DNA of 64,000 nucleotides from the NCBI GenBank assembly GCA_041656855.1, contig JBBACS010000003.1, positions 4,902-68,901 of the forward strand, written 5' to 3'. Within the stretch, counting starts at the first letter, position 1. Each line of letters opens with the position of its first letter. Made by a program: the position numbers and the translations under genes. This stretch comes from Minisyncoccota bacterium (GTDB taxonomy: Bacteria; Patescibacteriota; Minisyncoccia; Phycocordibacterales; GWA1-40-21). Below the pieces are notes generated by a model, which saw only the letters and a list, made by a program, of their open reading frames with translations, was not told where the DNA came from and did not search any database. This document shows, one piece after another, positions 1,975 through 55,076 of the stretch.

Positions 1975-2667
1975 TAGCCATTCTTTTAAAATTTCTTTCT
2001 CTTCAGAAGGACTTGTTGCCTTTTTAAATTTTACATCACCTTTTACTCCCTTTACTCTCTTTTCACATTCCACCCAAGTCTTATCTATATGAAGAACTCC
2101 ATGTACTAAGCTCAAATATGAATAAGCTATACCTTTATTACCAGATTTTTTTGTTACTTTAACACTACAACCTTTTGTATCATTCAAATCAAATTCATAA
2201 TCTGAAAGTATTCCTTTGAATAATTTAACATCTTCATTGTCAGCAAAAGAAGTCGCGATTGTATCGCATCTTTCATTACAAGACACACCTATATGACCAC
2301 CGACATAATTCCATTTAATATTTTTACCTTTTGAAACTTTAATAAGTTCTTCCCATAAATCACGATTTGAAACATCATCCTTTGTAGAATTTTTCCAGCC
2401 ATTTTTCTGCCATCCATAAACCCATTTTGTTATTCCATTTATTACATAGGCAGAATCTGTATTCAAAACTATCGCCTCTTTTGTTTTTTTAATTAATGAC
2501 AAAGCTTTTATCGCACCCATAAGCTCCATTCTATTATTTGTTGTGTGATTTTCTCTTCCACCTAATTCTGTAATTTTATTTTTGTCAGCAACAATTGCAC
2601 CCCAACCACCAGGACCAGGGTTTCCTCTTGAAGAGCCGTCACTAAAAATTAATATTTTTTCTTTCAT
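1954..2667 (-). CDS. rnhA: ribonuclease HI with C-terminal hybrid-binding-like extension
   Basis: ILIFSDGSSRGNPGPGGWGAIV, NRMELMGAIKAL, TDSAYVINGITKW and GGHIGVSCNERCDTIA form the RNase H fold and catalytic motif pattern. The C-terminal ~60 aa (AYSYLSLVHGVLHIDKTWVECEKRVKGVKGDVKFKKATSPSEEKE) resembles the RNase H1 hybrid-binding domain. Confidence 0.9.
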   Translation of the reverse strand: MKEKILIFSDGSSRGNPGPGGWGAIVADKNKITELGGRENHTTNNRMELMGAIKALSLIKKTKEAIVLNTDSAYVINGITKWVYGWQKNGWKNSTKDDVSNRDLWEELIKVSKGKNIKWNYVGGHIGVSCNERCDTIATSFADNEDVKLFKGILSDYEFDLNDTKGCSVKVTKKSGNKGIAYSYLSLVHGVLHIDKTWVECEKRVKGVKGDVKFKKATSPSEEKEILKEWLKQSTLR

Positions 2668-2669
2668 TT

Positions 2670-3071
2670 TTATGCTATATAAACATCACTTCCATCAGTC
2701 TCGGCAATTTCTGCATCAGCTTTTGTTTTATGAATTACTCCATCTTTATGGTGCGGTGGCATATATATTGTATAAAGTTTTAAAGATTTTTTGTTTGAAG
2801 TGTTAATCACATTGTGCATTGAGCCAGCAGGAACAACCACAGCGAAGCCATCAGAGATAAGTGCTTCTTCTCCATCAATTATTACCTTTCCTTCTCCACT
2901 ATCAATTCTGAAAAACTGATCATTATCTGGGTGAACTTCCATTCCTATTTCTTCACTCGGTAATAAACTCATTACAACAACTTGTCCATTCTTTGAAGTA
3001 TAAAGTACTTTTCTAAAATTATTATTGTTTATTGCATCCTGTTCAATATTTGAAACAAATCCTTTTTTCAT
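2670..3071 (-). CDS. cupin domain protein
   Basis: MEVHPDNDQFFRIDSGEGKVIIDGEE...VVVPAGSMHNVINTS is a cupin_2-type beta-barrel motif. The track start 3119 is a TTG inside a repeat, so I use the ATG at 3071 (MKKGFVSNIEQD). Confidence 0.8.
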   Translation of the reverse strand: MKKGFVSNIEQDAINNNNFRKVLYTSKNGQVVVMSLLPSEEIGMEVHPDNDQFFRIDSGEGKVIIDGEEALISDGFAVVVPAGSMHNVINTSNKKSLKLYTIYMPPHHKDGVIHKTKADAEIAETDGSDVYIA

Positions 3072-3116
3072 TGATTTTGCGAAATCACGTCGCGCAACCG
3101 TCCGATAAGCGCGACG
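3069..3116 (-). repeat. 46-nt repeat (copy 2), 5' leader of the cupin gene
   Basis: Reverse complement matches 1185-1230. It ends exactly at the cupin ATG. Confidence 0.65.
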
Positions 3117-3175
3117 CAATTTTTTAATTAATTGATAATATCTATATTATATCAAACCCATGATATAATACACGA

Positions 3176-3379
3176 ATGGAAAATAACGACAAAAAACTTA
3201 TTGAATTAGAAGAAAAAGTTAATAAAATCTATATTTCTGTAGAAAAAACAAGAAAATATTTCTTGTGGACGATGATTATCACAATAGTTTTATTTGTCTT
3301 ACCCCTTATAGGAATAATATTATTAGCTCCATCTTTCTTACAAACATATCTTGGTGATTTTAATAGTTTGAGTCTTTAA
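3176..3379 (+). CDS. small membrane protein, hypothetical
   Basis: 67-aa ORF with a coiled N-terminus and one hydrophobic helix (WTMIITIVLFVLPLIGIILLAP). Confidence 0.45.
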   Translation: MENNDKKLIELEEKVNKIYISVEKTRKYFLWTMIITIVLFVLPLIGIILLAPSFLQTYLGDFNSLSL

Positions 3380-3457
3380 AGCTAGGTTGTAGGAATTAGC
3401 TTCTTAGCTTTTTAGGAATTTCCTAATAAGCTACTACTCTAAAAAGCTACAAGCTGT

Positions 3458-3901
3458 TCAAGCATGGTGATACGGTTCTTTTTTTATTACAGAAATCGCT
3501 CTATATATAGATTCAGCCAAAATTAGCCGTACGAGTTGATGTGGAAAAGTTAATTTTGAAAGCGACCACTTAAGATTTGCTCTTTTATATACCTCTTCAG
3601 TGAAACCATAGGCTCCGCCGATTACAAATACAATTTTCTTGTCGGAAGCTGACATTCTTTTTTCAATAAAACCAGCAAGTTCTTCTGTTGTCATTTCTTT
3701 CCCTTTGTCATCTAGTACAACAACAAAATCTCCGCTATCAATATTTTTCAAAATTCCCTCGGCTTCTTTTTCTTTCAGAGATGTAGGAATAAGTTTCCAT
3801 TCAACTGGGAAATATCTACTAATTCTCTTTGTATAATCAGCTACCGCGACTTCTATATCTGAATCATTCTTCTTTCCTACTGAAATAAATGTGAATTTCA
3901 T
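3458..3901 (-). CDS. rlmH: 23S rRNA (pseudouridine1915-N3)-methyltransferase RlmH (SPOUT)
   Basis: MKFTFISVGKK..., VVVLDDKGKEMTTEE, VFVIGGAYGF and SLSKLTFPHQLVRLILAESIYRA. The ATG at 3901 is used because the track start is a TTG. Confidence 0.9.
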   Translation of the reverse strand: MKFTFISVGKKNDSDIEVAVADYTKRISRYFPVEWKLIPTSLKEKEAEGILKNIDSGDFVVVLDDKGKEMTTEELAGFIEKRMSASDKKIVFVIGGAYGFTEEVYKRANLKWSLSKLTFPHQLVRLILAESIYRAISVIKKEPYHHA

Positions 3902-4083
3902 CCGGTAGTGAAATTTCAAATTGTTTTTATATTGCTATATATACAATCTAAAACTTTATTTAATTATTAAAACTATTTTCGACTTTTTAACAAACTGTTT
4001 GTAAAAACAAAAGCAATGATTTGAAATTCTACTACGGGATTCATGATAAGGAAAGTATAGCAGATTTGTGCTAGAATCTCCTT

Positions 4084-4836
4084 ATGTTCACAAAAAACCA
4101 AGCAAAACTTATAAAATCCTTAGATGAAAAGAAAAACAGAGTTGAACTCGGACTATTTTTGGTTGAAGGAGAAAAAAGTGTTTCTGAACTACTTGATTCA
4201 GATTTTGAAATTGATTTACTACTTACTACTACAGAATTTTTTGATAAATACGGAGAAAAAATTAGAGAAAAATCAAAATCTTATGAAATTGTAAATCAAT
4301 TTGATTTAGAAAAAGTTGGGACCTTTGCAACAAACGACTCTGCTATTGCGGTGGTGAAACAAAAGATAAACAAACAAACTGAAATTAAAAAAAATGAGAT
4401 TTTAATAGCTTTAGATGAAATCAAAGATCCGGGAAACCTCGGAACAATCATTCGTATAGCTGACTGGTATGGAATAAAAAACATTATTGCTTCAAAAAAT
4501 ACAGTAGATTTCTATAATCCAAAAGTAATCACTGCAACTAAAGGTTCTTTCACTAGAGTAAGTATGTTTTACACTGATTTAAATGATTTTCTCTCAAAAA
4601 CAAAACTCCCTATTCTTGGTGCATTTCTAAATGGTGAAAATATTCATGAAACAAAATTCCCTGCAAGCGGAATACTTGTGATGGGTAATGAATCAAATGG
4701 TGTAAGCAAGGAAATAGAAAAACTTATTACAAAAAAAATAACTATTCCTGCATATGGAAAAGCAGAATCATTAAATGTTGCTATAGCGACTGCAATTATC
4801 TTGGATAATTGGCTAAGACAATCAAATTCAAAATAG
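4084..4836 (+). CDS. TrmH/SpoU-family RNA 2'-O-methyltransferase
   Basis: GNLGTIIRIADWYGI, VMGNESNGVS and IPAYGKAESLNVAIATAIIL are SpoU methylase motifs, with an N-terminal substrate-binding-like region. Confidence 0.85.
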   Translation: MFTKNQAKLIKSLDEKKNRVELGLFLVEGEKSVSELLDSDFEIDLLLTTTEFFDKYGEKIREKSKSYEIVNQFDLEKVGTFATNDSAIAVVKQKINKQTEIKKNEILIALDEIKDPGNLGTIIRIADWYGIKNIIASKNTVDFYNPKVITATKGSFTRVSMFYTDLNDFLSKTKLPILGAFLNGENIHETKFPASGILVMGNESNGVSKEIEKLITKKITIPAYGKAESLNVAIATAIILDNWLRQSNSK

Positions 4837-7226: not shown

Positions 7227-7443
7227 TGGGTGGCTATCGGGGAGTTTCAGCTTACAGCCGCAGTACACCAAGAATCAGAGGGGGTTGGTCACAGCTTTTT
7301 TCTTCGCCGTCGCTCAGAAAAAGTTGCGAAGCTCTGCACTTGATTTTCTAATTCACTTCGTTCATAACAAAATCTACGCCCGACTCAGCTGATTTTTCTA
7401 CTGAAAAATCAGCTTCCATCTTTCAACCCTCGATAGCCATACC
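7227..7443 (-). ncRNA. tRNA-cognate minihelix-mimic element, His-type copy B (type II + TGTAA modules)
   Basis: On the minus strand, the 5' part tggctatcgagggttgaa is antisense to the tRNA-His 3' end (ttcaacccccgatagcca). The 3' end ctccccgatagccaccca is a verbatim sense copy. It also contains the 14-nt-loop hairpin and the GTAC/TGTAA hairpin. Confidence 0.65.
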
Positions 7444-7452
7444 AAAAATATG

Positions 7453-7577
7453 TATCGGGGAGTTTTTCCTTACAGGAACTGTACACCTTTCGTATCGTAC
7501 TCACTACGTTTCGTGCGATATACTCAAGGTCTTCAACCCCCGAACGTAAGTGCCTACTAGCACTTACTTAGCCGCCC
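7453..7577 (-). ncRNA. tRNA-cognate minihelix-mimic element, His-type copy A (type I)
   Basis: On the minus strand: gggcggcta, hairpin gtaagtgc..gcacttac, tcgggggttgaa (antisense of the tRNA-His T-arm), accttGAgta..tacGAaaggt, gtacag-ttccTGTAAggaa-aaa, then ctccccgata. Confidence 0.65.
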
Positions 7578-7903
7578 AAATGAAAAAGACGGCTTAACGC
7601 CGCTTTTTCATTTGGGTGCATAGGGGGTCTAGAACAATCTACTACCAACAACCACAAAGGTATTTGAGCTATTTTCAGCGTATCAAAAATAGGCGTGTCG
7701 GTCACTATATAAAAAGATCAGAAGTGTTCATTAGTACACTACCCGTCTTATGCTTCCTTTTTTTCAAAAACAGAAGCATTCCATCAATCACCGTAAGAAT
7801 GGTTCAGAGAATTTTGAGTGTTTTTATAAATAAGTTCCAGAATAAATCATGGTCAAACGACGGTCTAGAACTAAAAACACAAATGGCTATAGATCTTTCT
7901 CAA

Positions 7904-9508: not shown

Positions 9509-9656
9509 TTTACAATTCTTTCGGCATTAGAATCACAGCTTTGTAGCTCTCCCTCGATTCTACGCGATAAAAATGTCCTAGCGGAATAAGTGAGTCTGGG
9601 ACCAAAATTTTATAAAACTAAAGCGAACCGGTCGCAAAACCAGTCGCTCACTCTTG
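9509..9656 (-). ncRNA. rearranged fragment of the mimic-element family directly downstream of tRNA-His
   Basis: On the minus strand it shares tgagcgac...ctttag, ggtcccagac, agcggaataagtga (inverted), gaatcgagggagag and cacagct with type II copies. No closing tRNA-like stem is present. Confidence 0.4.
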
Positions 9657-9728
9657 GGTGGCTATCGGGGGTTGAACCCGAACAAAGAGTTCCACAAACT
9701 CTTGTGCTACCGCTACACCATAGCCACC
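9657..9728 (-). tRNA. tRNA-His (GUG)
   Basis: Cloverleaf read by eye: G-1 plus gtggcta / tagccac acceptor, anticodon arm agagt-ttGTGga-actct, T-arm tcggg-ttcaacc-cccga, discriminator C. No complete encoded CCA. Confidence 0.9.
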
Positions 9729-12351: not shown

Positions 12352-12408
12352 AAATTTATTTTAATAATTTAGCATAGATTTGAGGGAAGTGCTATTTGGA
12401 TAAATGCA

Positions 12409-12523
12409 TGGGATTCTGTCACAGCTCTTTTCTTCGCCGTCGCTCAGAAAAAGTTGCGACCCCGACTCAGCTGATTTTTCTACTGAAAAATCAGCTTCCG
12501 TCTTTCGAATCCCTTAGCACCCA
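12409..12523 (-). ncRNA. tRNA-cognate minihelix-mimic element, Val-type (type II, 3' end truncated)
   Basis: The minus strand begins gggtgctaagggattcgaa, which is antisense to the tRNA-Val 3' end. Then an 11-bp hairpin agctgattttt..aaaaatcagct and the hairpin ctttttc-TGAGCGACGGCGAA-gaaaag. It ends gaatccca. Confidence 0.6.
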
Positions 12524-12577
12524 ATAAAAAATGGCCAAATGCTCCATGTATTCGCATTTGACCTATTTTTTAATCAG

Positions 12578-13733: not shown

Positions 13734-13768
13734 ACGCTTTTCCTTTGGGGCCCAACCCAAACTCAAAG

Positions 13769-13901
13769 CCCCCTTGGCAGGAAGTTCGACCGTTACACGG
13801 TCAGTACCCCCATTGGAGATTTTGTTTCGCTACACTCACAAAATCTGCTCAATGGGGCTTCGATTCCTGACGTGAGCAAAGACTTTTGCTCACTCCAAGG
13901 C
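13769..13901 (-). ncRNA. tRNA-cognate minihelix-mimic element, Arg(UCU)-type (type I)
   Basis: On the minus strand: gccttgg, hairpin gtgagcaaa..tttgctcac, tcaggaatcgaa (antisense of the T-arm), ccccattg..caatgggg helix, gtactg-gaccgTGTAAcggtc-gaa, then cttcctgccaaggg. Confidence 0.65.
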
Positions 13902-13945
13902 ACAAAATTAAAATCACCCATTTACTATGGGTGATTTTAATTTTG

Positions 13946-14017
13946 TGCCCTTGGCAGGAATCGAACCTACATCAAAGCCTTAGAAGAGCTCTGTTCTATC
14001 CATTGAACTACAAGGGC
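13946..14017 (-). tRNA. tRNA-Arg (UCU)
   Basis: gcccttg acceptor, D-arm gttc-aatggata-gaac, anticodon loop ctTCTaa, T-arm gtagg-ttcgatt-cctgc. Confidence 0.85.
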
Positions 14018-24465: not shown

Positions 24466-24655
24466 AAAGGGGCGAGATTCGGCTATTACTTAGCCAGGTA
24501 CTTTTCCGCTTCATATTATTAAGAGAGGGCGAGAATTTCGAAACTTACAGTTTCAGTACACCTTTTCTATTTTATATTCGTGATTACACTCTATAAAATT
24601 ATCAAAGGTCTTCGAATCTCGCACGAAAGCTCTCCCAGAGCTTTCTCCTCTGCGC
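24466..24655 (-). ncRNA. tRNA-cognate minihelix-mimic element, Ser-type (type I, with a second partial 3' module)
   Basis: On the minus strand: gcagagg, hairpin gaaagctc-tggg-gagctttc, gcgagattcgaa (antisense of the T-arm), accttt-GA..GA-aaaggt, gtactg-gaaacTGTAAgtttc-gaaa, then ttctcgccctctc. A second gtacctggctaagtaa..gaatctcgcccc module follows. ORFs 24580..25263 and 24591..24773 are spurious. Confidence 0.65.
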
Positions 24656-24692
24656 ATAAAAAATCACGCTGTTTCCAGCGGACTTTTTTATG

Positions 24693-24779
24693 CGGAGAGG
24701 GCGAGATTCGAACTCGCGAGACCCTTGCGAGCCTTTCAGTTTTCAAGACTGACGCTTTCAACCACTCAGCCACCTCTCC
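24693..24779 (-). tRNA. tRNA-Ser (UGA)
   Basis: ggagagg acceptor, anticodon arm tcagt-ctTGAaa-actga, long variable arm, T-arm gcgag-ttcgaat-ctcgc. Confidence 0.9.
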
Positions 24780-28947: not shown

Positions 28948-28981
28948 CAAAATGAAATACCCGAAAGGGTTTTTTCGTTTT

Positions 28982-29145
28982 GTCCTCTCAAGCAAGCAAA
29001 CTGCTTTGCTTGCGGGTTTGAATCGAACAGCGGAATGATATTTTTTCAGCAGAAAAATGAATGAGCTGGTGCCCAGACAAATCCGAGTGACGACGAGGAT
29101 TTAGTCGCGGGAGATAAATGTAATCATGTTCCAACTGAGAGGACA
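28982..29145 (+). ncRNA. tRNA-cognate minihelix-mimic element, Arg(GCG)-type (type II)
   Basis: gtcctctca, hairpin gcaagcaaa-ctgc-tttgcttgc, gggtttgaatcgaac, agcggaat, hairpin tttttc-agca-gaaaaa, gaatgagctggtgcccagac, hairpin aaatcc-GAGTGACGACGA-ggattt, agtcgcgggaga, then ttccaactgagaggaca (verbatim tRNA 3' end). Confidence 0.7.
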
Positions 29146-35988: not shown

Positions 35989-36150
35989 TGTGCGCTTAGT
36001 TGGACACGCTTCGCATTCTCCCTCGACTAAAGCTTCGTCGTCACTCAGCTTTGTCTGGGCACCAGCTCATTCGTCCCGCAAGCTTGCGGGACATTATTCC
36101 GCTGTTCGATTCCAACACACAAGCAAAGCAGTTTGCTTGTTTAAGCCACA
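35989..36150 (-). ncRNA. tRNA-cognate minihelix-mimic element, Lys-type (type II)
   Basis: On the minus strand: tgtggcttaa, hairpin caagcaaa-ctgc-tttgcttg, gttggaatcgaac, agcggaat, hairpin gtcccgca-agc-ttgcgggac, gaatgagctggtgcccagac, hairpin aaagc-TGAGTGACGACGAA-gcttt, agtcgagggaga, then tccaactaagcgcaca (verbatim tRNA-Lys 3' end). ORFs 35990..36178, 36000..36251 and 36153..36365 are spurious. Confidence 0.7.
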
Positions 36151-36169
36151 AATTATTTATAAAAATTTG

Positions 36170-38836: not shown

Positions 38837-38888
38837 AATAAAAAAAGATGGGTTCGCAAAGCGAACCCGTCTTTTTTTTAATTATATT

Positions 38889-42892: not shown

Positions 42893-42963
42893 GCGGGCAT
42901 AGTTTAGTGGTAAAACAACAGTTTTCCAAACTGTGGTTGGGTGTTCGATTCACCCTGCCCGCA
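42893..42963 (+). tRNA. tRNA-Gly (UCC)
   Basis: gcgggca acceptor, D-arm gttt-agtggta-aaac, anticodon arm acagt-ttTCCaa-actgt, T-arm gggtg-ttcgatt-caccc. No mimic element follows it. Confidence 0.9.
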
Positions 42964-42966
42964 CAA

Positions 42967-44045: not shown

Positions 44046-44116
44046 CGGAGTGTAGTGTAACGGTAGCATTCGTGCTTTGGGAGCATGCGATCCGGGTTCG
44101 AATCCCGGCACTCCGA
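44046..44116 (+). tRNA. tRNA-Pro (UGG)
   Basis: cggagtg acceptor, anticodon arm cgtgc-ttTGGga-gcatg, T-arm ccggg-ttcgaat-cccgg. Confidence 0.9.
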
Positions 44117-44157
44117 CAAAAGAAAATAAGTGGCTTAGGCTGCTTATTTTCTTTTGT

Positions 44158-44290
44158 CGGAGTGAGTAAGCAAACCACTTTGCTTACGTTCGGGATTCGA
44201 AAAGGTTCTCCCATATTTTTGAGCAATTAATATTGCGAGAAAATGGGAAACCTGTACTGCTCCTGTAAGGAGAGAAATTCCCGGCACTCG
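44158..44290 (+). ncRNA. tRNA-cognate minihelix-mimic element, Pro-type (type I)
   Basis: cggagtg, hairpin gtaagcaaa-ccac-tttgcttac, ttcgggattcgaa, aggttctcccat..atgggaaacct helix, ttttt-GA-gcaat..attgc-GA-gaaaa, gtactg-ctccTGTAAggag-agaaa, then ttcccggcactc. ORF 44008..44226 is spurious. Confidence 0.7.
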
Positions 44291-44295
44291 TTCGT

Positions 44296-44329
44296 TTCCA
44301 TAATTTGGGGTGGGACCCAAATTATGGAA
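44296..44329. terminator. bidirectional hairpin terminator (mimic element / cca)
   Basis: ttccataatttggg-gtggga-cccaaattatggaa. Confidence 0.7.
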
Positions 44330-44341
44330 TCTTTCTCTCTA

Positions 44342-45874
44342 TTAAACCTTATGACTCTTTCTAATCTCCTTTAATTCTTCCTCATTTTCTTCCTCTTTCC
44401 TTTCTTTTCCTTCCTCCCCCATTTCTCTCAATTTTTTTTCTGGAAGCTTTATAAGTTCAATAGCTTTTTTATTTAAATATTCTTCTGTATTTCTTTTTGG
44501 ATCATCCAGAACTTCTTCAAGAAGTGCATGTAAAACGAAACCAATTTTGGGTCCAGGAATTTCGCCTGTTACATCCATAATTTTTTTACCATCAATGTTA
44601 AGCATTCCAACAGAAATCGGGTCTCTCATAGCTTCATCAAGCATTGCATGATACTTTCTCAGTCTATATGGATCTTCTTTTGGCCTGCCCATTCCTATTC
44701 TATCGCAAGCTCGCAAATCCATAAGATCCCAGACATTATCTTTTCCAACTCTAGCTACAATTCTTCTAACAGCTGATAAACTGATGAGTTCTGTATCAGC
44801 AAAAAACATATGTACTCTAACGAATTTAGTAACTTTTTCTATAACTTTTGCAGGAAATCTCAAATCTTGTAAAATCTTTTCTGTCATTCTCGCACCAATT
44901 ACTTCATGCCCATAAAAAGTTGGCTTTTTCTCCCCCTCTCTTTTAGATTTAGGCTTCCCTATATCATGCAATAGGGCCGCAAGTCGAACTTCTAATGAAA
45001 GTTTTTTATCAGCAGCGTGTTGCAAAGATTTCAGTGAATGTTCCCATACATCATGTATATGTGCACCGCCTTGTTCTATTCCGATAGTTTTTTCTAATTC
45101 CGGAATAATATATTTTAATAAGCCGAATTTCAGACAAGATTTTAGCCCATGTGCCGGCTCACTAGACATAATTATTTTTGTAAATTCATCACGAATTCTT
45201 TCTTTTGCAATGTTTGAAAGTAAATTTGATTCTTCTGCTAATGCTTTTTCAGTTGCGCTATCAATTTCAAAACCGACATAGTTTCCTATTCTTACAGCAC
45301 GCAATATTCTAAGTCCATCTTCTTGAAATCTTTCATGCGGATTTCCTACAGTTTTTAGAACTTTATTTTTTAAATCTTCCTGACCGGAAAATAGGTCAAC
45401 GATTTGTCCTTTATAAAAATCTTTCTTACTTACCACTAGGTCAGCAGACTTTTCGTGACTTCCCTCATCTTCAATACTCAAAGCAATAGCATTTATCGTG
45501 AAATCTCTCCTCTTTAAATCATCTTCAAGCTTATTACTGAAAGTAACCTTGTCTGGCCTTCTATTGTCAGAATATTCAGATTCAAGCCTATATGGGGTCA
45601 CCTCAATCACTTTGAGTGTTTCATCGGAAACCGTTTCGTTTACTACACCTACAGTTCCATAATTGTTTTCATAAAAAGTATCAGGAAATATCTTTATAAT
45701 TTCTTCTGGTTTAGCATTTGTCGTAAGATCCCAATCTTTAGGTTTCACACCAATCAAAATATCACGAACACAACCCCCTATTAAATAGGCCTCAAATCCA
45801 ACACCTTTAAGTTTTTGTGAAACTTCTAGGACTTCCTTTGGAATTGGACCGTATTCTGTGATAGTTTTTTTCAT
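44342..45874 (-). CDS. cca: CCA tRNA nucleotidyltransferase with HD domain
   Basis: YLIGGCVRDILIG, DWDLTT, RRDFTINA, LRILRAVR and LLHDIGKP. Confidence 0.9.
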   Translation of the reverse strand: MKKTITEYGPIPKEVLEVSQKLKGVGFEAYLIGGCVRDILIGVKPKDWDLTTNAKPEEIIKIFPDTFYENNYGTVGVVNETVSDETLKVIEVTPYRLESEYSDNRRPDKVTFSNKLEDDLKRRDFTINAIALSIEDEGSHEKSADLVVSKKDFYKGQIVDLFSGQEDLKNKVLKTVGNPHERFQEDGLRILRAVRIGNYVGFEIDSATEKALAEESNLLSNIAKERIRDEFTKIIMSSEPAHGLKSCLKFGLLKYIIPELEKTIGIEQGGAHIHDVWEHSLKSLQHAADKKLSLEVRLAALLHDIGKPKSKREGEKKPTFYGHEVIGARMTEKILQDLRFPAKVIEKVTKFVRVHMFFADTELISLSAVRRIVARVGKDNVWDLMDLRACDRIGMGRPKEDPYRLRKYHAMLDEAMRDPISVGMLNIDGKKIMDVTGEIPGPKIGFVLHALLEEVLDDPKRNTEEYLNKKAIELIKLPEKKLREMGEEGKERKEEENEEELKEIRKSHKV

Positions 45875-46510: not shown

Positions 46511-46581
46511 GCGAGCGTGGTTTAATGGTAGAACTAGTCCTTGCCAAGGATTGGGTCCGGGTTCGATTCCCGGCGCTCGCA
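46511..46581 (+). tRNA. tRNA-Gly (GCC)
   Basis: gcgagcg acceptor, anticodon arm agtcc-ttGCCaa-ggatt, T-arm ccggg-ttcgatt-cccgg. Confidence 0.9.
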
Positions 46582-46622
46582 CAAATGAAAAATACTCAGG
46601 ATTCTGAGTATTTTTCATTTGT

Positions 46623-46841
46623 GCGAGCGAGTAAGCAAATCTACTTTGCTTACGTCCGGGAATCGAAAACCTTGAGTATATTTTTGAACTTTTACTAAAG
46701 TGAAAAAATACGAAAGGTGTACCGTCCATGTAATGGAAGATAAGCGAAGCGGTCCCGGCGCATTTACCGTAGTAGATTATATTCGGGATAGGGCCTGAAT
46801 ATAATTTTGTAGAAAGTGTACTCACGGTTCCCGTCGCTAGC
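46623..46841 (+). ncRNA. tRNA-cognate minihelix-mimic element, Gly(GCC)-type (type I, with a second partial 3' module)
   Basis: gcgagcg, hairpin gtaagcaaa-tctac-tttgcttac, tccgggaatcgaa, acctt-GA-gta..tac-GA-aaggt, gtaccg-tccaTGTAAtgga, then ggtcccggcgc. A second gtgtactcacggttcccgtcgc module follows. ORFs 46486..46698 and 46505..46843 are spurious. Confidence 0.7.
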
Positions 46842-47186
46842 ATTTTTTAAAACCGTTTCCATAGGTTTTAAAAAATTTTTGAAATATTTTTTCAAAGACA
46901 CTCCCCTTTTTATTATCAGACACACAACAACATAATTTAGTAAAAAAGGAATAATATCTCAAAAACTAGGCCTTTAAATAAGCTCTTTTTTAGGCAAAAC
47001 TGTGGATAACTATGTTCATATGTTAATTAAAGACAGCTTTTTAAGGTCTGATAGAATTACGACTTTTATAGTCCTATATGCAATAAATGGCTATAAATAT
47101 AGCTAATTATAGAAATACGTCCTTAAAACCCTAAATGTCTAATATAAAGTGTTTCTTAGTAACACTTTATATCAGTTTCATGCCTG

Positions 47187-47298
47187 CCCCGTGTGAAATC
47201 CAACACATGACTTTTATATAACTTGGAAAAAATATGTTACACATGAAATCAAATACTAAAATATGGCTTAAATGTTAGGATTTCTTTACGGGGTGAAA
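47187..47298 (+). repeat. 112-nt direct repeat, copy 1 (upstream of yraN)
   Basis: ccccgtgtgaaatcca...gttacacatgaaatcaaatactaaaatatggcttaa...gatttctttacggggtgaaa. Confidence 0.75.
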
Positions 47299-47365
47299 AG
47301 TACAAATTCATGACTTATAAAGATTACACATGAAACACAAAACTATGATAATATGTTAGAAATAC

Positions 47366-52922: not shown

Positions 52923-55076
52923 ATGAAAACACAACAATTTTCAATGGAACTTGGTGGTAAAACACTTAGTGCTGAGTTCAATGATTTGGTAGAAAATGCG
53001 AACGGTTCAGTTATTTTAAGATATGGTGCGACAGCAGTTCTCGCAACCGCTGTTATGTCAAAACACCAAAAGGAAGGTGCGGGATTTTTCCCATTAACAG
53101 TAGATTACGAGGAAAAGTTTTATGCTACAGGACAAATCCTTGGTAGCAGATACACAAGAAGAGAAGGAAAACCTTCTGATGACGCTATTCTTTCAGGAAG
53201 AATTACAGACAGAACAATCCGTCCACTTTTTGAACAATGGATTAGAAATGAAATACAAGTAGTCCTTACTGTACTTTCTCTAGACCAAGATGATCCAGAT
53301 ACACTCGGCGTTATCGCGGCTTCACTTGCAATTGGAGTATCAAATATCCCTTTCAATGGGCCAGTTAGCTCAATAAGAATTGCAAAACATAAAACTGATG
53401 GTTTTCAAATAAACCCAACATATGTTGAAAGAGATAATGAAACTTATGATCTTGATCTTCTTGCTTGTGGAAAAGATGGAAATATAAACATGATAGAGCT
53501 TGGTGGAGATGAAACTCAAGAATCTTCTGCTGTTGAGGCACTCAAACTTGCATCTACAGAAATTGAAAAAATAAATAAATGGCAATCTGAAATAATTGCA
53601 AAAATTGGAGTAAAAAAATTGGTATTAGTTGCTCCTGTAATGCCAGAATCTGTAAAAAAACTTTTTGCAGATAAAATAGAAGGTAAATTTGCTACAACGG
53701 TGATGAGTGGAATTCCTGGTCATGAAAAAATAAACGAAATAACAGAAGAATGGATGAAAATGGCAGAAAAAACTCTTACTGAAGAAGAATTTGAATTCGC
53801 AGAAAGATATATGGAAGAAAAGCTTGATAACCTGATACACGAACAAGTTCTAAAGTTTGATAAAAGAGCTGACGGAAGAGGGTTGGATCAACTTAGACCT
53901 TTATTTGCACAAGCTGGTGGAGTTTCACCGATGCTTCATGGTTCAGGAATATTTTATAGAGGGGGAACTCACGTCCTTTCTGTACTTACTCTTGGCGGAC
54001 CAAAAGACGCTCAAACAATAGAAGGTATTGAAAACAAAGATCTAACAAAGAAATTCATGCACCATTATAATTTCCCTCCATTTTCAACAGGGGAAACAGG
54101 AAGAATGGGTGGAACAAATAGAAGAATGATTGGTCATGGTAACCTTGCTGAAAAAGCATTGCTTCCAATGATTCCGAGTAATAAAGATTTCCCTTATACA
54201 ATAAGACTTGTTTCAGAAGCGCTTTCTTCAAATGGTTCAACTTCAATGGGATCTGTTTGCGGATCTACAATTGCACTTATGGATGGAGGAGTTCCAATAA
54301 AAAGACCAGTAGCTGGTATAGCGAGCGGACTTATGTCAGATGGAAAAGGAACATTTAAAGTTCTTACAGATATTCAAGGACCAGAAGATCATTACGGAGA
54401 TATGGATTTTAAAGTTGCAGGAACAACACAAGGAGTCACAGCAATTCAAATGGATGTAAAAGTTGGAGGTATTCCAATAGATGTTCTAGCGATTGCATTT
54501 GAAAAAGCAAAAGCTGCAAGATTACAAATATTAAAAGTAATAGCTGGCGCTATCTCAGAAACAAGAAAAGACATTTCCAATAATGCTCCAAAAATATTAG
54601 TAATAAAAATTAAACCAGACCAAATCGGTGGAGTAATCGGCTCAGGAGGAAAAACTATTAAAGCGATTAAGGAAAAAACTGGTGCTGAAGTTGATATTGA
54701 TGACGACGGAACAGTCTATCTAACAGGGAAAAATGGCTCTGCAGAAAAAGCTAAAATGATTGTTGAAAGTATGACCCATGAGTACAAACCGGGAGAAAAA
54801 TTTGAAGGAACAGTGGTCAGAGTAGAAGCTTTCGGAGCATTCGTAAATATTGGATATGAAACAGATGGTCTTGTCCACGTTTCAGAAATTGCACCATTTA
54901 GAGTAGACAATGTTAGCGACTATCTAAAGATCGGAGACAAAGTTCCAGTAGTCGTAAAAGAAATAGATGAAAGAGAAAGAATTGCTTTGTCTATTAAAGC
55001 TACAGCTCCAGATTTTATAAAGAGAAAAACACCACCAACAGGAACTATTCCACCAGCTGGACCAGCAAAAATATAG
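52923..55076 (+). CDS. pnp: polyribonucleotide nucleotidyltransferase (PNPase)
   Basis: Two RNase PH domains (FPLTVDYEEKFYA, RADGR, MHHYNFPPFSTGE, SNGSTSM, GDMDFKVAGT), a KH domain (IGGVIGSGGKTIK) and an S1 domain (GAFVNIG..DGLVHVSE). Confidence 0.95.
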   Translation: MKTQQFSMELGGKTLSAEFNDLVENANGSVILRYGATAVLATAVMSKHQKEGAGFFPLTVDYEEKFYATGQILGSRYTRREGKPSDDAILSGRITDRTIRPLFEQWIRNEIQVVLTVLSLDQDDPDTLGVIAASLAIGVSNIPFNGPVSSIRIAKHKTDGFQINPTYVERDNETYDLDLLACGKDGNINMIELGGDETQESSAVEALKLASTEIEKINKWQSEIIAKIGVKKLVLVAPVMPESVKKLFADKIEGKFATTVMSGIPGHEKINEITEEWMKMAEKTLTEEEFEFAERYMEEKLDNLIHEQVLKFDKRADGRGLDQLRPLFAQAGGVSPMLHGSGIFYRGGTHVLSVLTLGGPKDAQTIEGIENKDLTKKFMHHYNFPPFSTGETGRMGGTNRRMIGHGNLAEKALLPMIPSNKDFPYTIRLVSEALSSNGSTSMGSVCGSTIALMDGGVPIKRPVAGIASGLMSDGKGTFKVLTDIQGPEDHYGDMDFKVAGTTQGVTAIQMDVKVGGIPIDVLAIAFEKAKAARLQILKVIAGAISETRKDISNNAPKILVIKIKPDQIGGVIGSGGKTIKAIKEKTGAEVDIDDDGTVYLTGKNGSAEKAKMIVESMTHEYKPGEKFEGTVVRVEAFGAFVNIGYETDGLVHVSEIAPFRVDNVSDYLKIGDKVPVVVKEIDERERIALSIKATAPDFIKRKTPPTGTIPPAGPAKI

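Follow-up and report, generated by a model that had tools for sequence, protein, structure and literature searches.

The window analysed here is a 64,000-nt stretch of Minisyncoccota bacterium contig JBBACS010000003.1 (GCA_041656855.1; a CPR bacterium of Candidatus Paceibacterota, as the first-pass annotation had supposed), and 8 of its 11 tRNA genes are followed by a structured unit of 130-250 nt (for tRNA-His the units lie about 2 kb away, behind a remnant of its 3' half). Each unit is framed by an inverted and a direct copy of the 3' half of the intact tRNA upstream, here termed IR and DR1, the original being DR0. Between them lies one of at least four types of core (types I-IV), and in most units IR is split by a conserved hairpin, H. 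The type I core consists of a long hairpin, P-a, a GTAC linker and a short hairpin, P-b, with a TGTAA loop. The features of the tRNA-Gly locus and of the other copies are as follows.

46511..46582 (+): intact tRNA-Gly(GCC), called by ARAGORN and by Rfam (65.9 bits); its 3' half, from T-loop to discriminator (DR0), is the template of the framing repeats.
46574..46629 (+): perfect palindrome with 26-nt arms (100% complementary) and a 4-nt loop; one arm is the tRNA acceptor 3' strand plus trailer, the other the spacer plus the inverted acceptor copy (IR-acc, GCGAGCG, 46623-46629).
46631..46653 (+): hairpin H (GTAAGCAAA-TCTAC-TTTGCTTAC), inserted between the acceptor part and the T part of the inverted repeat, with a sequence conserved across tRNAs and genomes.
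46655..46667 (+): IR-T, TCCGGG plus AATCGAA, the reverse complement of the tRNA's T-loop and T-stem 3' strand (46562-46573; 12 nt, 100% complementary).
46669..46718 (+): type I core, helix P-a, with an acctt/aaggt base, tandem G·A (46674-75 with 46712-13), gtat/atac, and an A/U-rich stem capped by ACTTT-TACT-AAAGT.
46719..46724 (+): conserved linker GTAC plus CG (consensus RTAC-NG).
46725..46737 (+): type I core, hairpin P-b, TCCA-TGTAA-TGGA.
46738..46762 (+): tail AGATAAGCGAAGCGG (containing a GCGAAGC mini-hairpin), then DR1, a decayed direct repeat of the tRNA's T-stem 3' strand and the start of its acceptor 3' strand (TCCCGGCGCA).
46776..46805 (+): trailing hairpin module (ATTATATTCGGG-ATAGGG-CCTGAATATAAT) of the recurrent TTTGGGGTGGGACCCAAA family that follows many units.
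46816..46842 (+): second 3' module without a hairpin (GTGTACTCACGG), followed by another decayed tRNA-Gly 3' copy (TTCCCGTCGCTAGCA), the relic of an earlier or tandem unit; the same AAGTGTACTCACGRTYC module is present in L009, L010 and L011 (L-numbers denote the sampled related loci).
44157..44290 (+): type I unit behind tRNA-Pro (44046-44117), with H 44166-44187, IR-T 44189-44201, P-a 44203-44253, GTAC and P-b 44254-44272, and DR1 44279-44290; a terminator-like hairpin follows at 44296-44329.
24523..24655 (-): type I unit behind tRNA-Ser (24692-24779), with H 24625-24645, IR-T 24611-24622, P-a 24560-24609, GTAC and P-b 24539-24559, and DR1 24523-24534; a truncated type IV 3' module and a third DR lie at 24469-24501.
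13771..13903 (-): type I unit (100 bits) behind tRNA-Arg(UCU) (13945-14017), with H 13872-13893, IR-T 13859-13870, P-a 13808-13857, GTAC and P-b 13787-13807, and DR1 13771-13783.
7452..7635 (-): His-A type I unit, preceded by a degenerate tRNA-His 3'-half remnant (7614-7635) and a spacer palindrome (7578-7613), with H 7546-7567, IR-T 7532-7544 (TTCGGGGGTTGAA, the reverse complement of the His T-loop TTCAACC plus stem), P-a 7485-7530, GTAC and P-b 7466-7484, and DR1 7452-7462.
7228..7438 (-): His-B composite unit, with an inverted repeat without H (7422-7438), a type III core (7287-7421), the type I 3' module GTAC and P-b (7248-7266) and DR1 (7228-7244).

Covariation of the two helices

The first-pass annotation had described six copies of a GTAC-stem-TGTAA-stem module, five of them with an enclosing helix with tandem GA upstream, and this observation was confirmed. 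The pattern GTAC-N(3-9)-TGTAA gave 8 hits in the window against 1.8 expected (0 of 100 shuffles reached 8). Six of these are exactly the claimed copies, whereas the other two (22479 and 46416) have no complementary stem and are chance matches. The P-b stems are tcca/tgga (Gly, 46725-46737), ctcc/ggag (Pro, 44260-44272), gaaac/gtttc (Ser, 24540-24554), ttcc/ggaa (His-A, 7466-7478), gaccg/cggtc (Arg-UCU, 13788-13802) and cggc/gctg (His-B, 7248-7260), this last with one G·U. The enclosing helices (acctt/aaggt and the others) are present as described, and each of the five full cores folds on its own into P-a plus P-b, with z-scores from -2.1 to -5.1. Small corrections were, however, needed. The module had been placed immediately before the T-stem 3' strand, and although it does sit just 5' of a copy of that strand, 15 nt (AGATAAGCGAAGCGG) separate the two in the Gly copy. 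In Arg-UCU the tandem GA lies at the apex of P-a and not in the basal helix, His-B has the 3' module only, attached to a different (type III) core, and GTAC is really RTAC, being ATAC in about 7 of 35 copies, although TAC is invariant in an alignment of 27 copies.

We added copies from relatives, giving 27-35 copies from about 20 Paceibacteria (CPR) genomes. On an unfitted MAFFT alignment of 27 copies, the four inner P-b pairs were 100% paired, with 8-14 sequences changed on both sides at each pair; 0 of 500 shuffles reached this, and slid registers paired at 46% or less. On the model-fitted alignment of 35 copies, 24 of 27 pairs showed double changes, and 90.9% of cells paired versus 64% when shuffled and at most 51% when slid. 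G·U/U·G pairs numbered 40 and A·C/C·A pairs 13 (p = 3e-4), and in all five window cores the sense strand folded at least slightly more stably than the antisense strand, by 0.1-5 kcal/mol. The covariation persists between true orthologs, since the ortholog of the Gly unit in L001 keeps the apical stem of P-a through three compensatory changes (CTTT/AAAG to CATG/CATG). The interpretation placed on these observations was only partly supported: a selected single-strand fold with two covarying helices, tandem G·A pairs and a conserved pentaloop held, whereas the tRNA insert and k-turn readings did not.

To investigate whether the core belongs to a known class of RNA, we searched the window against Rfam 15 at gathering score and at E<=1, and seven related loci at gathering score. 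Only tRNA hits and unrelated weak hits were returned, with nothing on the cores. The tandem G·A pairs, which had been likened to a k-turn, are real and are conserved in all core types in the context UGAG...CGAA, but they form a symmetric 2x2 loop (5'-UGAG/CGAA-3') or close an apical loop, and no copy has the 3-nt bulge between the C and NC stems that defines a k-turn. A hammerhead ribozyme was likewise ruled out, as UGAG...CGAA resembles only the stem II-proximal G·A pairs, the CUGA uridine turn is missing and there is no Rfam hit. UGUAA fits the five-nucleotide T-loop motif consensus UGNRA/UGHAA (bioRxiv 10.1101/2022.12.26.521914) and is present in all 27 copies of the hand-collected alignment, although a few copies found later by the model have variant loops, for example CGUAG in L062. 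However, known terminal T-loops have two extra bulged nucleotides 3' of the motif, whereas P-b is a bare pentaloop of exactly 5 nt closed by a Watson-Crick pair; no receptor was identified, and whether there is one lies beyond an in silico analysis.

A frame copied from the upstream tRNA and exchangeable cores

The first-pass annotation had read the unit as an insert in a tRNA-like frame. However, the frame has no D arm and no anticodon arm, a single 22-23-nt hairpin stands in their place, and neither ARAGORN nor Rfam calls these tRNA 'shadows'. The 5' side is instead the exact reverse complement of the upstream tRNA's T-loop, T-stem 3' strand, acceptor 3' strand and trailer (TTCGATT becomes AATCGAA, TTCGAAT becomes ATTCGAA and, for His, TTCAACC becomes GGTTGAA), so that it is an inverted repeat and not a tRNA 5' half; the His T-loop rules out a direct duplicate. 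The inverted and direct repeats are exact in the window. A 12-mer of T5'-like stem plus reverse-complemented T-loop occurs downstream of 44 of 293 tRNAs, against 4 in the upstream control, and in a second count at 39 of 280 tRNAs, against 11 with a direct copy. The insert carrying H is 24-25 nt in 22 of 30 units. DR1 starts at C56/G57 (types II-IV) or around G51-T54 (type I); its left edge falls inside the T-loop, and it extends to the discriminator and sometimes 40 nt beyond, through the trailer and a second terminator. IR tracks the living tRNA (mismatches 0.46 of 12 and 0.67 of 7) whereas DR1 decays (2.07 of 12). Several other readings of these parts were rejected. A retroviral-type primer-binding site is excluded because the inverted repeat continues into the genomic trailer (C plus an A-run) and not into CCA (no TGG); the loops of H (TCTAC, CCAC, AGTC, CTGC) do not track the tRNA as a codon or anticodon complement would; and the P-b 3' strand is not merely the tRNA's T-stem 5' strand, as tRNA-Pro alone carries at least six different P-b stems.

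The first-pass annotation also did not see that the module is mobile or exchangeable, that it is one of at least four core types sharing the same frame, or that it occurs in a protein-gene terminator loop. Indeed, orthologous Gly-GCC, Pro, Gly-UCC and Arg-UCG loci, in genomes whose CCA-adding enzyme is 74-89% identical to that of the window (encoded at 44342-45874), carry type I, III or IV cores, tandem arrays, or nothing. The closest relative of four of the five window cores sits at a different tRNA in another genome, at 84-91% identity, and 25 of 27 cores lie within 301 nt downstream of a same-strand tRNA. One copy, L007_x, lies in the loop of the clpP terminator, which in the window, L005 and L019 is a plain T-arm-like hairpin, GGGTTCGC-AAA-GCGAACCC. 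A metagenome scan with H plus IR-T, which also sought units carrying an ORF, returned only six loci, all short and non-coding; all six lie behind further tRNA species, each with a cognate inverted repeat. No unit contains an ORF. The 2-kb stretch between tRNA-His and His-A was considered as a master element, but its ORFs are small membrane or secreted-looking proteins with no Pfam match and no sign of a mobility enzyme. In viral contigs, two type I patterns gave 9 and 0 hits, and all nine lie in coding-looking sequence with no complementary stem and no tRNA nearby, so they are chance matches. Full-text literature searches on tRNA-like sequences, T-loops, minihelices, MITEs and integration in CPR/Patescibacteria found no description of this arrangement.

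A proposed modular element at the tRNA T-loop site

We therefore suggest, with moderate confidence, that the sequence is the type I core of a modular, non-autonomous insertion element occupying the 3' flank of tRNA genes in Paceibacteria. Each unit reads, in order, as an intact tRNA, a palindromic spacer hairpin, an inverted copy of the tRNA's positions 54-76 split by the 25-nt hairpin H, a core, and a direct copy of the tRNA's 3' half. Read as one piece, the locus is a tRNA gene with an insertion of about 180 nt at the T-loop (positions 53/54) that begins with a replacement 3' half, so the tRNA stays functional; the predicted minimum-free-energy (MFE) fold of the co-transcript also draws the unit as a T-loop insertion. 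We think that the unit is transcribed as the tRNA's 3' trailer, because there is no promoter-like site between tRNA and unit and a terminator-like hairpin follows the unit (seen for Pro). In that transcript IR would pair with DR1 to give an acceptor/T-stem minihelix, which would sequester the displaced 3' half and offer RNase P, RNase Z and CCA-adding-enzyme-type ends. In this view the core, which folds on the tRNA-sense strand and has tandem sheared G·A pairs, must fold compactly so that the host hairpin (minihelix or terminator) still closes, and this requirement, and/or recognition by a trans-acting mobility factor, would maintain the covariation. What our data demonstrate is the anatomy, the covariation, the strand asymmetry, presence/absence and type-swapping at orthologous loci, transfer between loci, and a filled-versus-empty terminator site, whereas transcription and processing, the insertion chemistry, and the selfish rather than beneficial nature of the element are inferred, the mechanism being unproven. 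Some observations sit uneasily with this reading. There were no expression data with which to tell RNA from sense-strand ssDNA, and no mobility enzyme was identified, with no ORF in any unit and, in a weak test, no RAYT-like hit in 1.4 Mb of sampled loci. The inverted repeat is cognate to each tRNA, which a simple cut-and-paste element does not explain, and which needs tRNA-specific lineages, capture of host sequence, or templated palindrome correction. As DR1 decays, the IR-DR1 minihelix seems less constrained than the tRNA-IR palindrome. The thermodynamically best fold of the co-transcript unfolds the tRNA by pairing its 3' half with IR (about -113 versus -92 kcal/mol), which would be harmful unless folding or processing is kinetically controlled, and the spacer hairpin, with its A and T tracts, may itself terminate transcription before the unit.

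Two alternatives are possible, although we consider each unlikely. The unit may be a host-beneficial tRNA-mimic small RNA, in which the minihelix plus H plus core, after RNase P and RNase Z processing and perhaps CCA addition, is a stable RNA whose core, with its UGUAA T-loop-like pentaloop and tandem G·A, would bind a protein or another RNA, for example a tRNA-processing or modification enzyme, or a decoy target, with the cognate acceptor and T stems giving tRNA-specific recognition. H sits exactly where the D and anticodon domain of a tRNA would be and is conserved across tRNAs and distant genomes, covariation persists between true orthologs, UGUAA fits the T-loop consensus, and in genomes close to that of the window the Gly-GCC locus is almost always occupied by some unit. 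However, core type is freely swapped at one locus, the locus is empty in relatives at about 75% identity or less, DR1, and with it the acceptor-like stem, decays while the core is kept, the reverse-complemented T-loop has no rationale in an RNA mimic, and the same core works in a clpP terminator that has no tRNA frame. Alternatively, the signal may be single-stranded DNA, with P-a and P-b as subterminal hairpins of a REP- or IS200/IS605-like miniature element mobilised in trans by an HUH Y1 transposase (RAYT-like), or with the tRNA-spacer-IR hairpin as a folded att site (like integron attC or CTX-phage attP) used by a Xer-type tyrosine recombinase acting at the symmetric T-arm. The format matches GTAG-type REPs, the sense strand of co-oriented genes is the lagging-strand template so that the wobble asymmetry fits ssDNA as well, the perfect palindromes and the IR tracking the tRNA look like DNA-level homogenisation, the junctions fall at the edges of the T-loop, the classical crossover segment of tRNA-targeting integrases, tRNA genes are inverted in place between relatives, and GCGAAGC, an unusually stable DNA mini-hairpin, recurs in the units. 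On the other hand, a tblastn search found nothing below E = 0.7 in 1.4 Mb of window and sampled loci, a weak test that covered no whole genomes and used an E. coli RayT query that was not a retrieved reference sequence, so that the presence of a cognate Y1 transposase is left undecided. Units always follow the orientation of the tRNA or the upstream gene, including the head-on tRNA-Arg(GCG) unit, tandem G·A pairs and a T-loop-type pentaloop are typical RNA tertiary modules, and the only integrase-family gene seen is syntenic in all relatives and is probably the housekeeping Xer.

Three further readings are very unlikely. A true intron or split gene, in which the tRNA 5' part, the roughly 180-nt insert and DR1 would be spliced to make the tRNA or the shadow would be an intron-containing paralogue, might be entertained because the MFE fold pairs the tRNA's 5' strands with DR1 and because T-loop introns occur in archaeal tRNAs, but it is disfavoured, since the upstream tRNA is already complete (57-73 bits), DR1 is often truncated or mutated (Gly, CGCA only; Pro, 1-nt deletion), the shadow lacks anticodon and D arms, and no group I or group II intron was matched in Rfam. 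A k-turn RNP bound by an L7Ae/YbxF-type protein has only the conserved tandem G·A pairs in its favour and lacks the defining bulge. A functionless by-product of replication, through fold-back template switching at the terminator hairpin and the T-arm, would give a direct-inverted-direct triplication of the tRNA 3' half, the rest being drifting junk, and a two-switch model predicts three observed features, DR0-spacer-IR-DR1, junctions at the T-arm, and a second terminator copy after DR1 (as in L012 and L001). However, it cannot produce H or the cores, nor explain compensatory changes in 24 of 27 pairs or near-identical cores at different tRNAs in different genomes, and the covariation refutes it as a full explanation, although it may still account for the scaffold.

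Relation to known elements and significance

The units can be compared with several known systems. Genomic islands and prophages that integrate in the T-loop of tRNA genes carry a replacement 3' end (the classical attP/attB identity segment; sublocation classes are described by Williams 2002), and as in these a direct repeat of the tRNA 3' segment, starting within the T-loop, flanks the insertion and the tRNA gene stays intact. However, our units are only 130-250 nt with no integrase or any other ORF, have an additional inverted copy of the tRNA 3' half and a conserved hairpin H, carry a covarying structured core as cargo, and occupy most tRNAs of one small genome. With REP/BIME elements and RAYT transposases (PMC3733652) they share a conserved tetranucleotide tag, two unpaired bases, a covarying stem of 4-6 bp with a short loop, a conserved 3' tail, G·T pairs, a location at the 3' ends of genes, clusters, and copy number that varies between strains. 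The tag, however, is GTAC/ATAC and not one of the described GTAG degeneracies, so that the shared format alone does not settle membership, and the hairpin is only one part of a 60-80-nt two-helix module nested in tRNA-derived repeats. MITE-type structured repeats that are transcribed and fold as RNA (ERIC, Correia/NEMIS, RUP, BOX, Rickettsia RPE) are likewise non-autonomous, repeated, inserted in transcribed 3' regions and folded into long hairpins, but here no element-borne terminal inverted repeats were seen, the closing stems come from the target (a tRNA 3' half or a terminator arm), and the site preference for the T-arm is strong. A 4-6-nt (T)TCGAA flanks most cores on both sides but is itself T-loop sequence, and hence does not tell us whether a target-site duplication is present. 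In tRNA-like processing scaffolds and functional tRNA trailers (mascRNA/MALAT1, viral TLS, E. coli 3'ETS-leuZ) an acceptor/T-stem minihelix is similarly placed so that tRNA-processing enzymes could define the ends, and the RNA derives from a tRNA 3' trailer, but here the T-loop is replaced by a large insert and the 5' strand is an inverted repeat of the neighbouring tRNA, processing being unexamined. A more speculative and unlikely possibility, which our data do not rule out, is a previously unrecognised kind of mobile element whose ends are templated by the target. It would insert at the symmetric T-arm of any tRNA gene, or at a T-arm-like terminator, and copy or capture the host tRNA's 3' half in both orientations, for example through a folded hairpin intermediate or snap-back synthesis, thereby building a tRNA-mimicking scaffold that hijacks RNase P, RNase Z and the CCA-adding enzyme to mature a family of novel structured RNAs (types I-IV) with their own biochemical activity or protein partner.

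To conclude, Paceibacteria have genomes of roughly 0.6-0.75 Mb (the longest related contigs are 606 and 733 kb), and even so these units lie behind the majority of tRNA genes in this window. The finding also matters for annotation, as the shadows look like broken tRNAs and the palindromes can mislead assemblers and terminator predictors. If our reading is right, it would provide at least four new covarying RNA motifs that are absent from Rfam, a miniature, enzyme-less relative of tRNA-integrating islands which shows how a T-loop insertion can heal its target, a natural tRNA-minihelix scaffold that carries foreign RNA domains, and a palindrome-rich context that may explain why tRNA genes flip orientation in place in these genomes.

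A tRNA-derived frame downstream of intact tRNA genes

The window has a G+C content of 33%, encodes housekeeping bacterial genes (CCA-adding enzyme, PNPase, RecJ, RNase Y, UvrD and DHQ synthase) and carries 11 tRNA genes. Its CCA-adding enzyme is 100% identical to a protein of a 'Candidatus Paceibacterota bacterium' MAG. To check the six structured copies listed in the first-pass annotation, we searched the window for GTAC-N3-9-TGTAA, which occurs 8 times against 1.8 expected. Six of these hits are the copies listed, whereas the other two have no stem. The stems, the enclosing helices and the GA...GA dinucleotides that had been described are all present, and each of the five full cores folds alone into a long hairpin (P-a) and a short hairpin (P-b) joined by RTAC-NG, with z-scores from -2.1 to -5.1. 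The observation is therefore confirmed. Its interpretation was supported only in part, since a selected fold was borne out by our analyses whereas a k-turn-like motif was not.

We next compared each tRNA with its downstream sequence, which showed that every copy lies about 80 nt behind an intact, same-strand tRNA. The 5' side of the tRNA-like frame is an inverted repeat (IR), the reverse complement of the 3' half of that tRNA. A T-loop TTCGATT gives AATCGAA (Gly, Arg-UCU, Arg-GCG and Lys), a T-loop TTCGAAT gives ATTCGAA (Pro, Ser and Val), and the unusual His T-loop TTCAACC gives GGTTGAA. The palindrome runs on through the T-stem, the acceptor strand, the trailer and the spacer, and a repeat search reported 22-26-nt arms at 100% complementarity (84% for the 25-nt Ser arms), plus 11-12-nt T-loop/T-stem arms at 100%. 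Between the acceptor part and the T part of this inverted repeat sits a conserved hairpin, H (RYRAGCAAA-N4-5-TTTGCTYRY). The 3' side of the frame is a direct repeat (DR1) of the T-stem 3' strand and acceptor 3' strand of the tRNA. The unit thus reads: tRNA (whose own 3' half is DR0), palindromic spacer, IR with H, core, DR1. It is not a tRNA paralogue, because it has no D arm, no anticodon arm and an antisense T-loop.

To determine how general this arrangement is, we retrieved orthologous loci around the CCA-adding enzyme from four metagenomic contigs and 80 GTDB species (related loci are designated L001, L002 and so on). The 12-mer comprising a T5'-like stem plus the reverse-complemented T-loop lies downstream of 44 of 293 tRNAs, against 4 in the upstream control, and in a second count it was found at 39 of 280 tRNAs, against 11 with a direct copy. 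The insert that holds H is 24-25 nt in 22 of 30 units. A metagenome scan for H plus the T part of the inverted repeat returned six loci, all of which lie behind further tRNAs (Lys-UUU, Lys-CUU, Arg-UCU, Arg-CCG, Arg-CCU and Ser-GGA), and in each the T part of the inverted repeat is cognate to that tRNA. At least four core types share the frame: type I, the subject of this analysis; type II, at Arg-GCG and Lys in the window; type III, at Val, His-B (the composite His unit) and in many relatives; and type IV, which shares the 3' module of GTAC plus hairpin. The other core types and associated features in the window are as follows.

28949-29135 (+) and 36000-36168 (-): type II units behind tRNA-Arg(GCG) and tRNA-Lys, with the same frame (spacer, IR with H, DR1) but a different, well-conserved core, CAGCGGAAT-hairpin-GAATGAGCTGGTGCCCAGAC-stem with a GAGTGACGACGA loop-GTCGAGGGAGA; Rfam finds nothing.
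12380-12576 (-) and 7287-7421 (-): type III core, AGACGGA-hairpin-GAGTCGGGGTCG-stem with a GAGCGACGGCGA or TTTTCAGCAGAAAA loop-CTGTGACC, behind tRNA-Val and inside His-B; the most widespread core in distant relatives (L042, L053, L070, L084).
44296-44329, 46776-46805 and 13742-13772: a recurrent trailing hairpin with a G-rich loop (ATTTGGGG-TGGGA-CCCAAAT and variants), which follows DR1 in many units and genomes and in L034 takes the place of H.
46745-46751 and the 36040 region: the heptamer GCGAAGC, an unusually stable mini-hairpin, which recurs in tails and loops of several core types (also in L001, L033, L041 and L101).
7614-7635 (-): a degenerate tRNA-His 3'-half remnant, 2 kb downstream of the real tRNA-His (9656-9727); the ORFs between them are small membrane or secreted-looking proteins with no Pfam match, and this may be the relic of a larger insertion at tRNA-His.
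46850-47360: a 500-bp non-coding stretch next to the Gly unit, holding the only perfect DnaA box of the window (47001-47009; CTGTGGATAAC is conserved in relatives) and coinciding with the minimum of cumulative GC skew, so oriC is probably here.

Covariation and motifs of the type I core

We next aligned copies from the window and from relatives. On a plain MAFFT alignment of 27 type I cores, the four inner P-b pairs are 100% paired and at each pair 8-14 sequences are changed on both sides; 0 of 500 shuffles reach this, and slid registers pair at 46% or less. Within one subfamily, 18 of 28 RNAalifold pairs show compensatory changes. A covariance model built from that subfamily finds all subfamilies, with 35 hits in 1.3 Mb, including all five full cores in the window and nothing else there. 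On its alignment, 24 of 27 pairs have double changes, 90.9% of cells pair, versus 64% when shuffled and at most 51% when slid, and 0 of 500 shuffles reach the observed covariation score. Although this alignment is fitted to the model, the unfitted results agree. The true ortholog in L001 keeps the apical P-a stem through three compensatory changes (CTTT/AAAG to CATG/CATG). G·U/U·G pairs outnumber A·C/C·A pairs 40 to 13 (p = 3e-4), and in all five window cores the sense strand folds at least slightly more stably than the antisense strand, by 0.1-5 kcal/mol. The structure therefore belongs to the tRNA-sense strand, as RNA or as sense-strand ssDNA.

As the GA...GA dinucleotides had been likened to a k-turn, we also examined the motifs within the fold. 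The G·A pairs form 5'-UGAG/CGAA-3' steps, either inside P-a or closing its apex, and the same step occurs in types II-IV. However, there is no 3-nt bulge, so this is not a k-turn. The step resembles the stem II side of a hammerhead, but the CUGA turn is missing and Rfam finds nothing. The UGUAA loop of P-b fits the T-loop consensus UGNRA/UGHAA but lacks the two bulged nucleotides. The layout of RTAC, two free bases, a covarying stem-loop and a conserved tail is formally like that of GTAG-tagged REPs (PMC3733652).

Exchange of modules between loci

The modules move. The contents of the orthologous Gly-GCC locus differ between relatives as listed here.

Window and L001: type I of one subfamily.
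L007: type I of another subfamily.
L008 and L011: type I of a third subfamily.
L002 and L049: type IV.
L010: a type I core with a type III core nested in it.
L003: a type III plus I plus I array.
More distant genomes: nothing.

Gly-UCC is empty in the window but filled in L001 and L002, where the direct repeat is a perfect match over about 25 nt and includes the trailer, and L003 Pro has at least three tandem type I units. The nearest relative of each window core is mostly at another tRNA in another genome.

Nearest relatives of the five window type I cores (window core; nearest relative; identity)
Pro; L007, Gly-GCC locus; 91%
Ser; L003, Pro locus; 85%
Arg-UCU; L011, Pro locus; 84%
His-A; L009, Pro locus; 89%
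Gly-GCC; L001, Gly-GCC locus (orthologous); 90%

In all, 25 of 27 cores lie within 301 nt downstream of a same-strand tRNA. The exception L007_x, a type I core in L007, is informative. It sits together with a copy of H in the loop of the clpP terminator (L007 18818-18935, -; GGCGGGTT...AACCCGCC). In the window (38837-38885, +; GATGGGTTCGC-AAA-GCGAACCCGTC), L005 and L019 the orthologous terminator is a plain hairpin, GGGTTCGC-AAA-GCGAACCC, whose arm resembles a T-arm. This is a filled-versus-empty site.

Individual tRNA genes also change orientation without moving. tRNA-Gly(UCC) (42893-42964) and tRNA-Pro (44046-44117) are each inverted in place relative to the neighbouring NAD kinase, RNHCP and CCA-enzyme genes in close relatives (L001-L003), and tRNA-Arg(UCG) flips between L001 and L002. 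In L008 (9583-9900), tRNA-Gly(GCC) with its unit and tRNA-Arg(UCG) are convergent and share one palindromic terminator, which shows how a full inverted tRNA next to a terminator resembles the IR arrangement. In the 733-kb contig of L001, the PNPase gene (2004-4153) is called as four separate ORFs, whereas it is a single 717-aa ORF in the window (52923-55076), which points to frameshifts or assembly errors.

Relation of the unit to its tRNA and interpretation

To investigate how the scaffold relates to the tRNA, we mapped the edges of DR1 and folded the tRNA and unit together. The left edge of DR1 falls in the T-loop, at C56/G57 for types II-IV and around G51-T54 with small indels for type I, whereas its right edge can extend through the trailer and a second copy of the terminator (L012, L001). 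The MFE of the tRNA-plus-unit transcript pairs the T-loop, T-stem 3' strand, acceptor 3' strand and trailer of the tRNA with the spacer and IR, in a duplex of about 40 bp from which H branches off, and the same fold pairs the 5' strands of the tRNA with DR1. This fold is 14-21 kcal/mol more stable than separate folds of the tRNA and the unit. In other words, the locus is a tRNA gene with a T-loop insertion that begins with a replacement 3' half, which is the logic of T-loop-integrating islands, but without an integrase. IR stays nearly identical to the living tRNA (0.46 of 12 and 0.67 of 7 mismatches) while DR1 decays (2.07 of 12). For example, an acceptor C-to-T change between the window and L001 is mirrored in IR but not in DR1. 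This suggests palindrome homogenisation or selection on the tRNA-IR pairing.

There is no promoter-like site between the tRNA and the unit, and the terminator-like hairpin at 44296-44329 follows the Pro unit. Although expression data were lacking, this context fits co-transcription of the unit as a 3' trailer.

A beneficial tRNA-mimic RNA and an ssDNA-level signal (REP/RAYT-like or a folded att site) remain live rivals to the reading that we prefer, and the insertion chemistry, and how the inverted repeat becomes cognate to each tRNA, are unexplained. What our comparisons demonstrate is that the type I core is a real, selected, strand-specific fold, and that it belongs to a modular, exchangeable family of tRNA-flank elements that we could not find in Rfam or in the literature; its behaviour as a transcribed insertion element is what we infer from them. 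We favour a non-autonomous insertion element that is transcribed with the tRNA and folded into a closed, processable structure.
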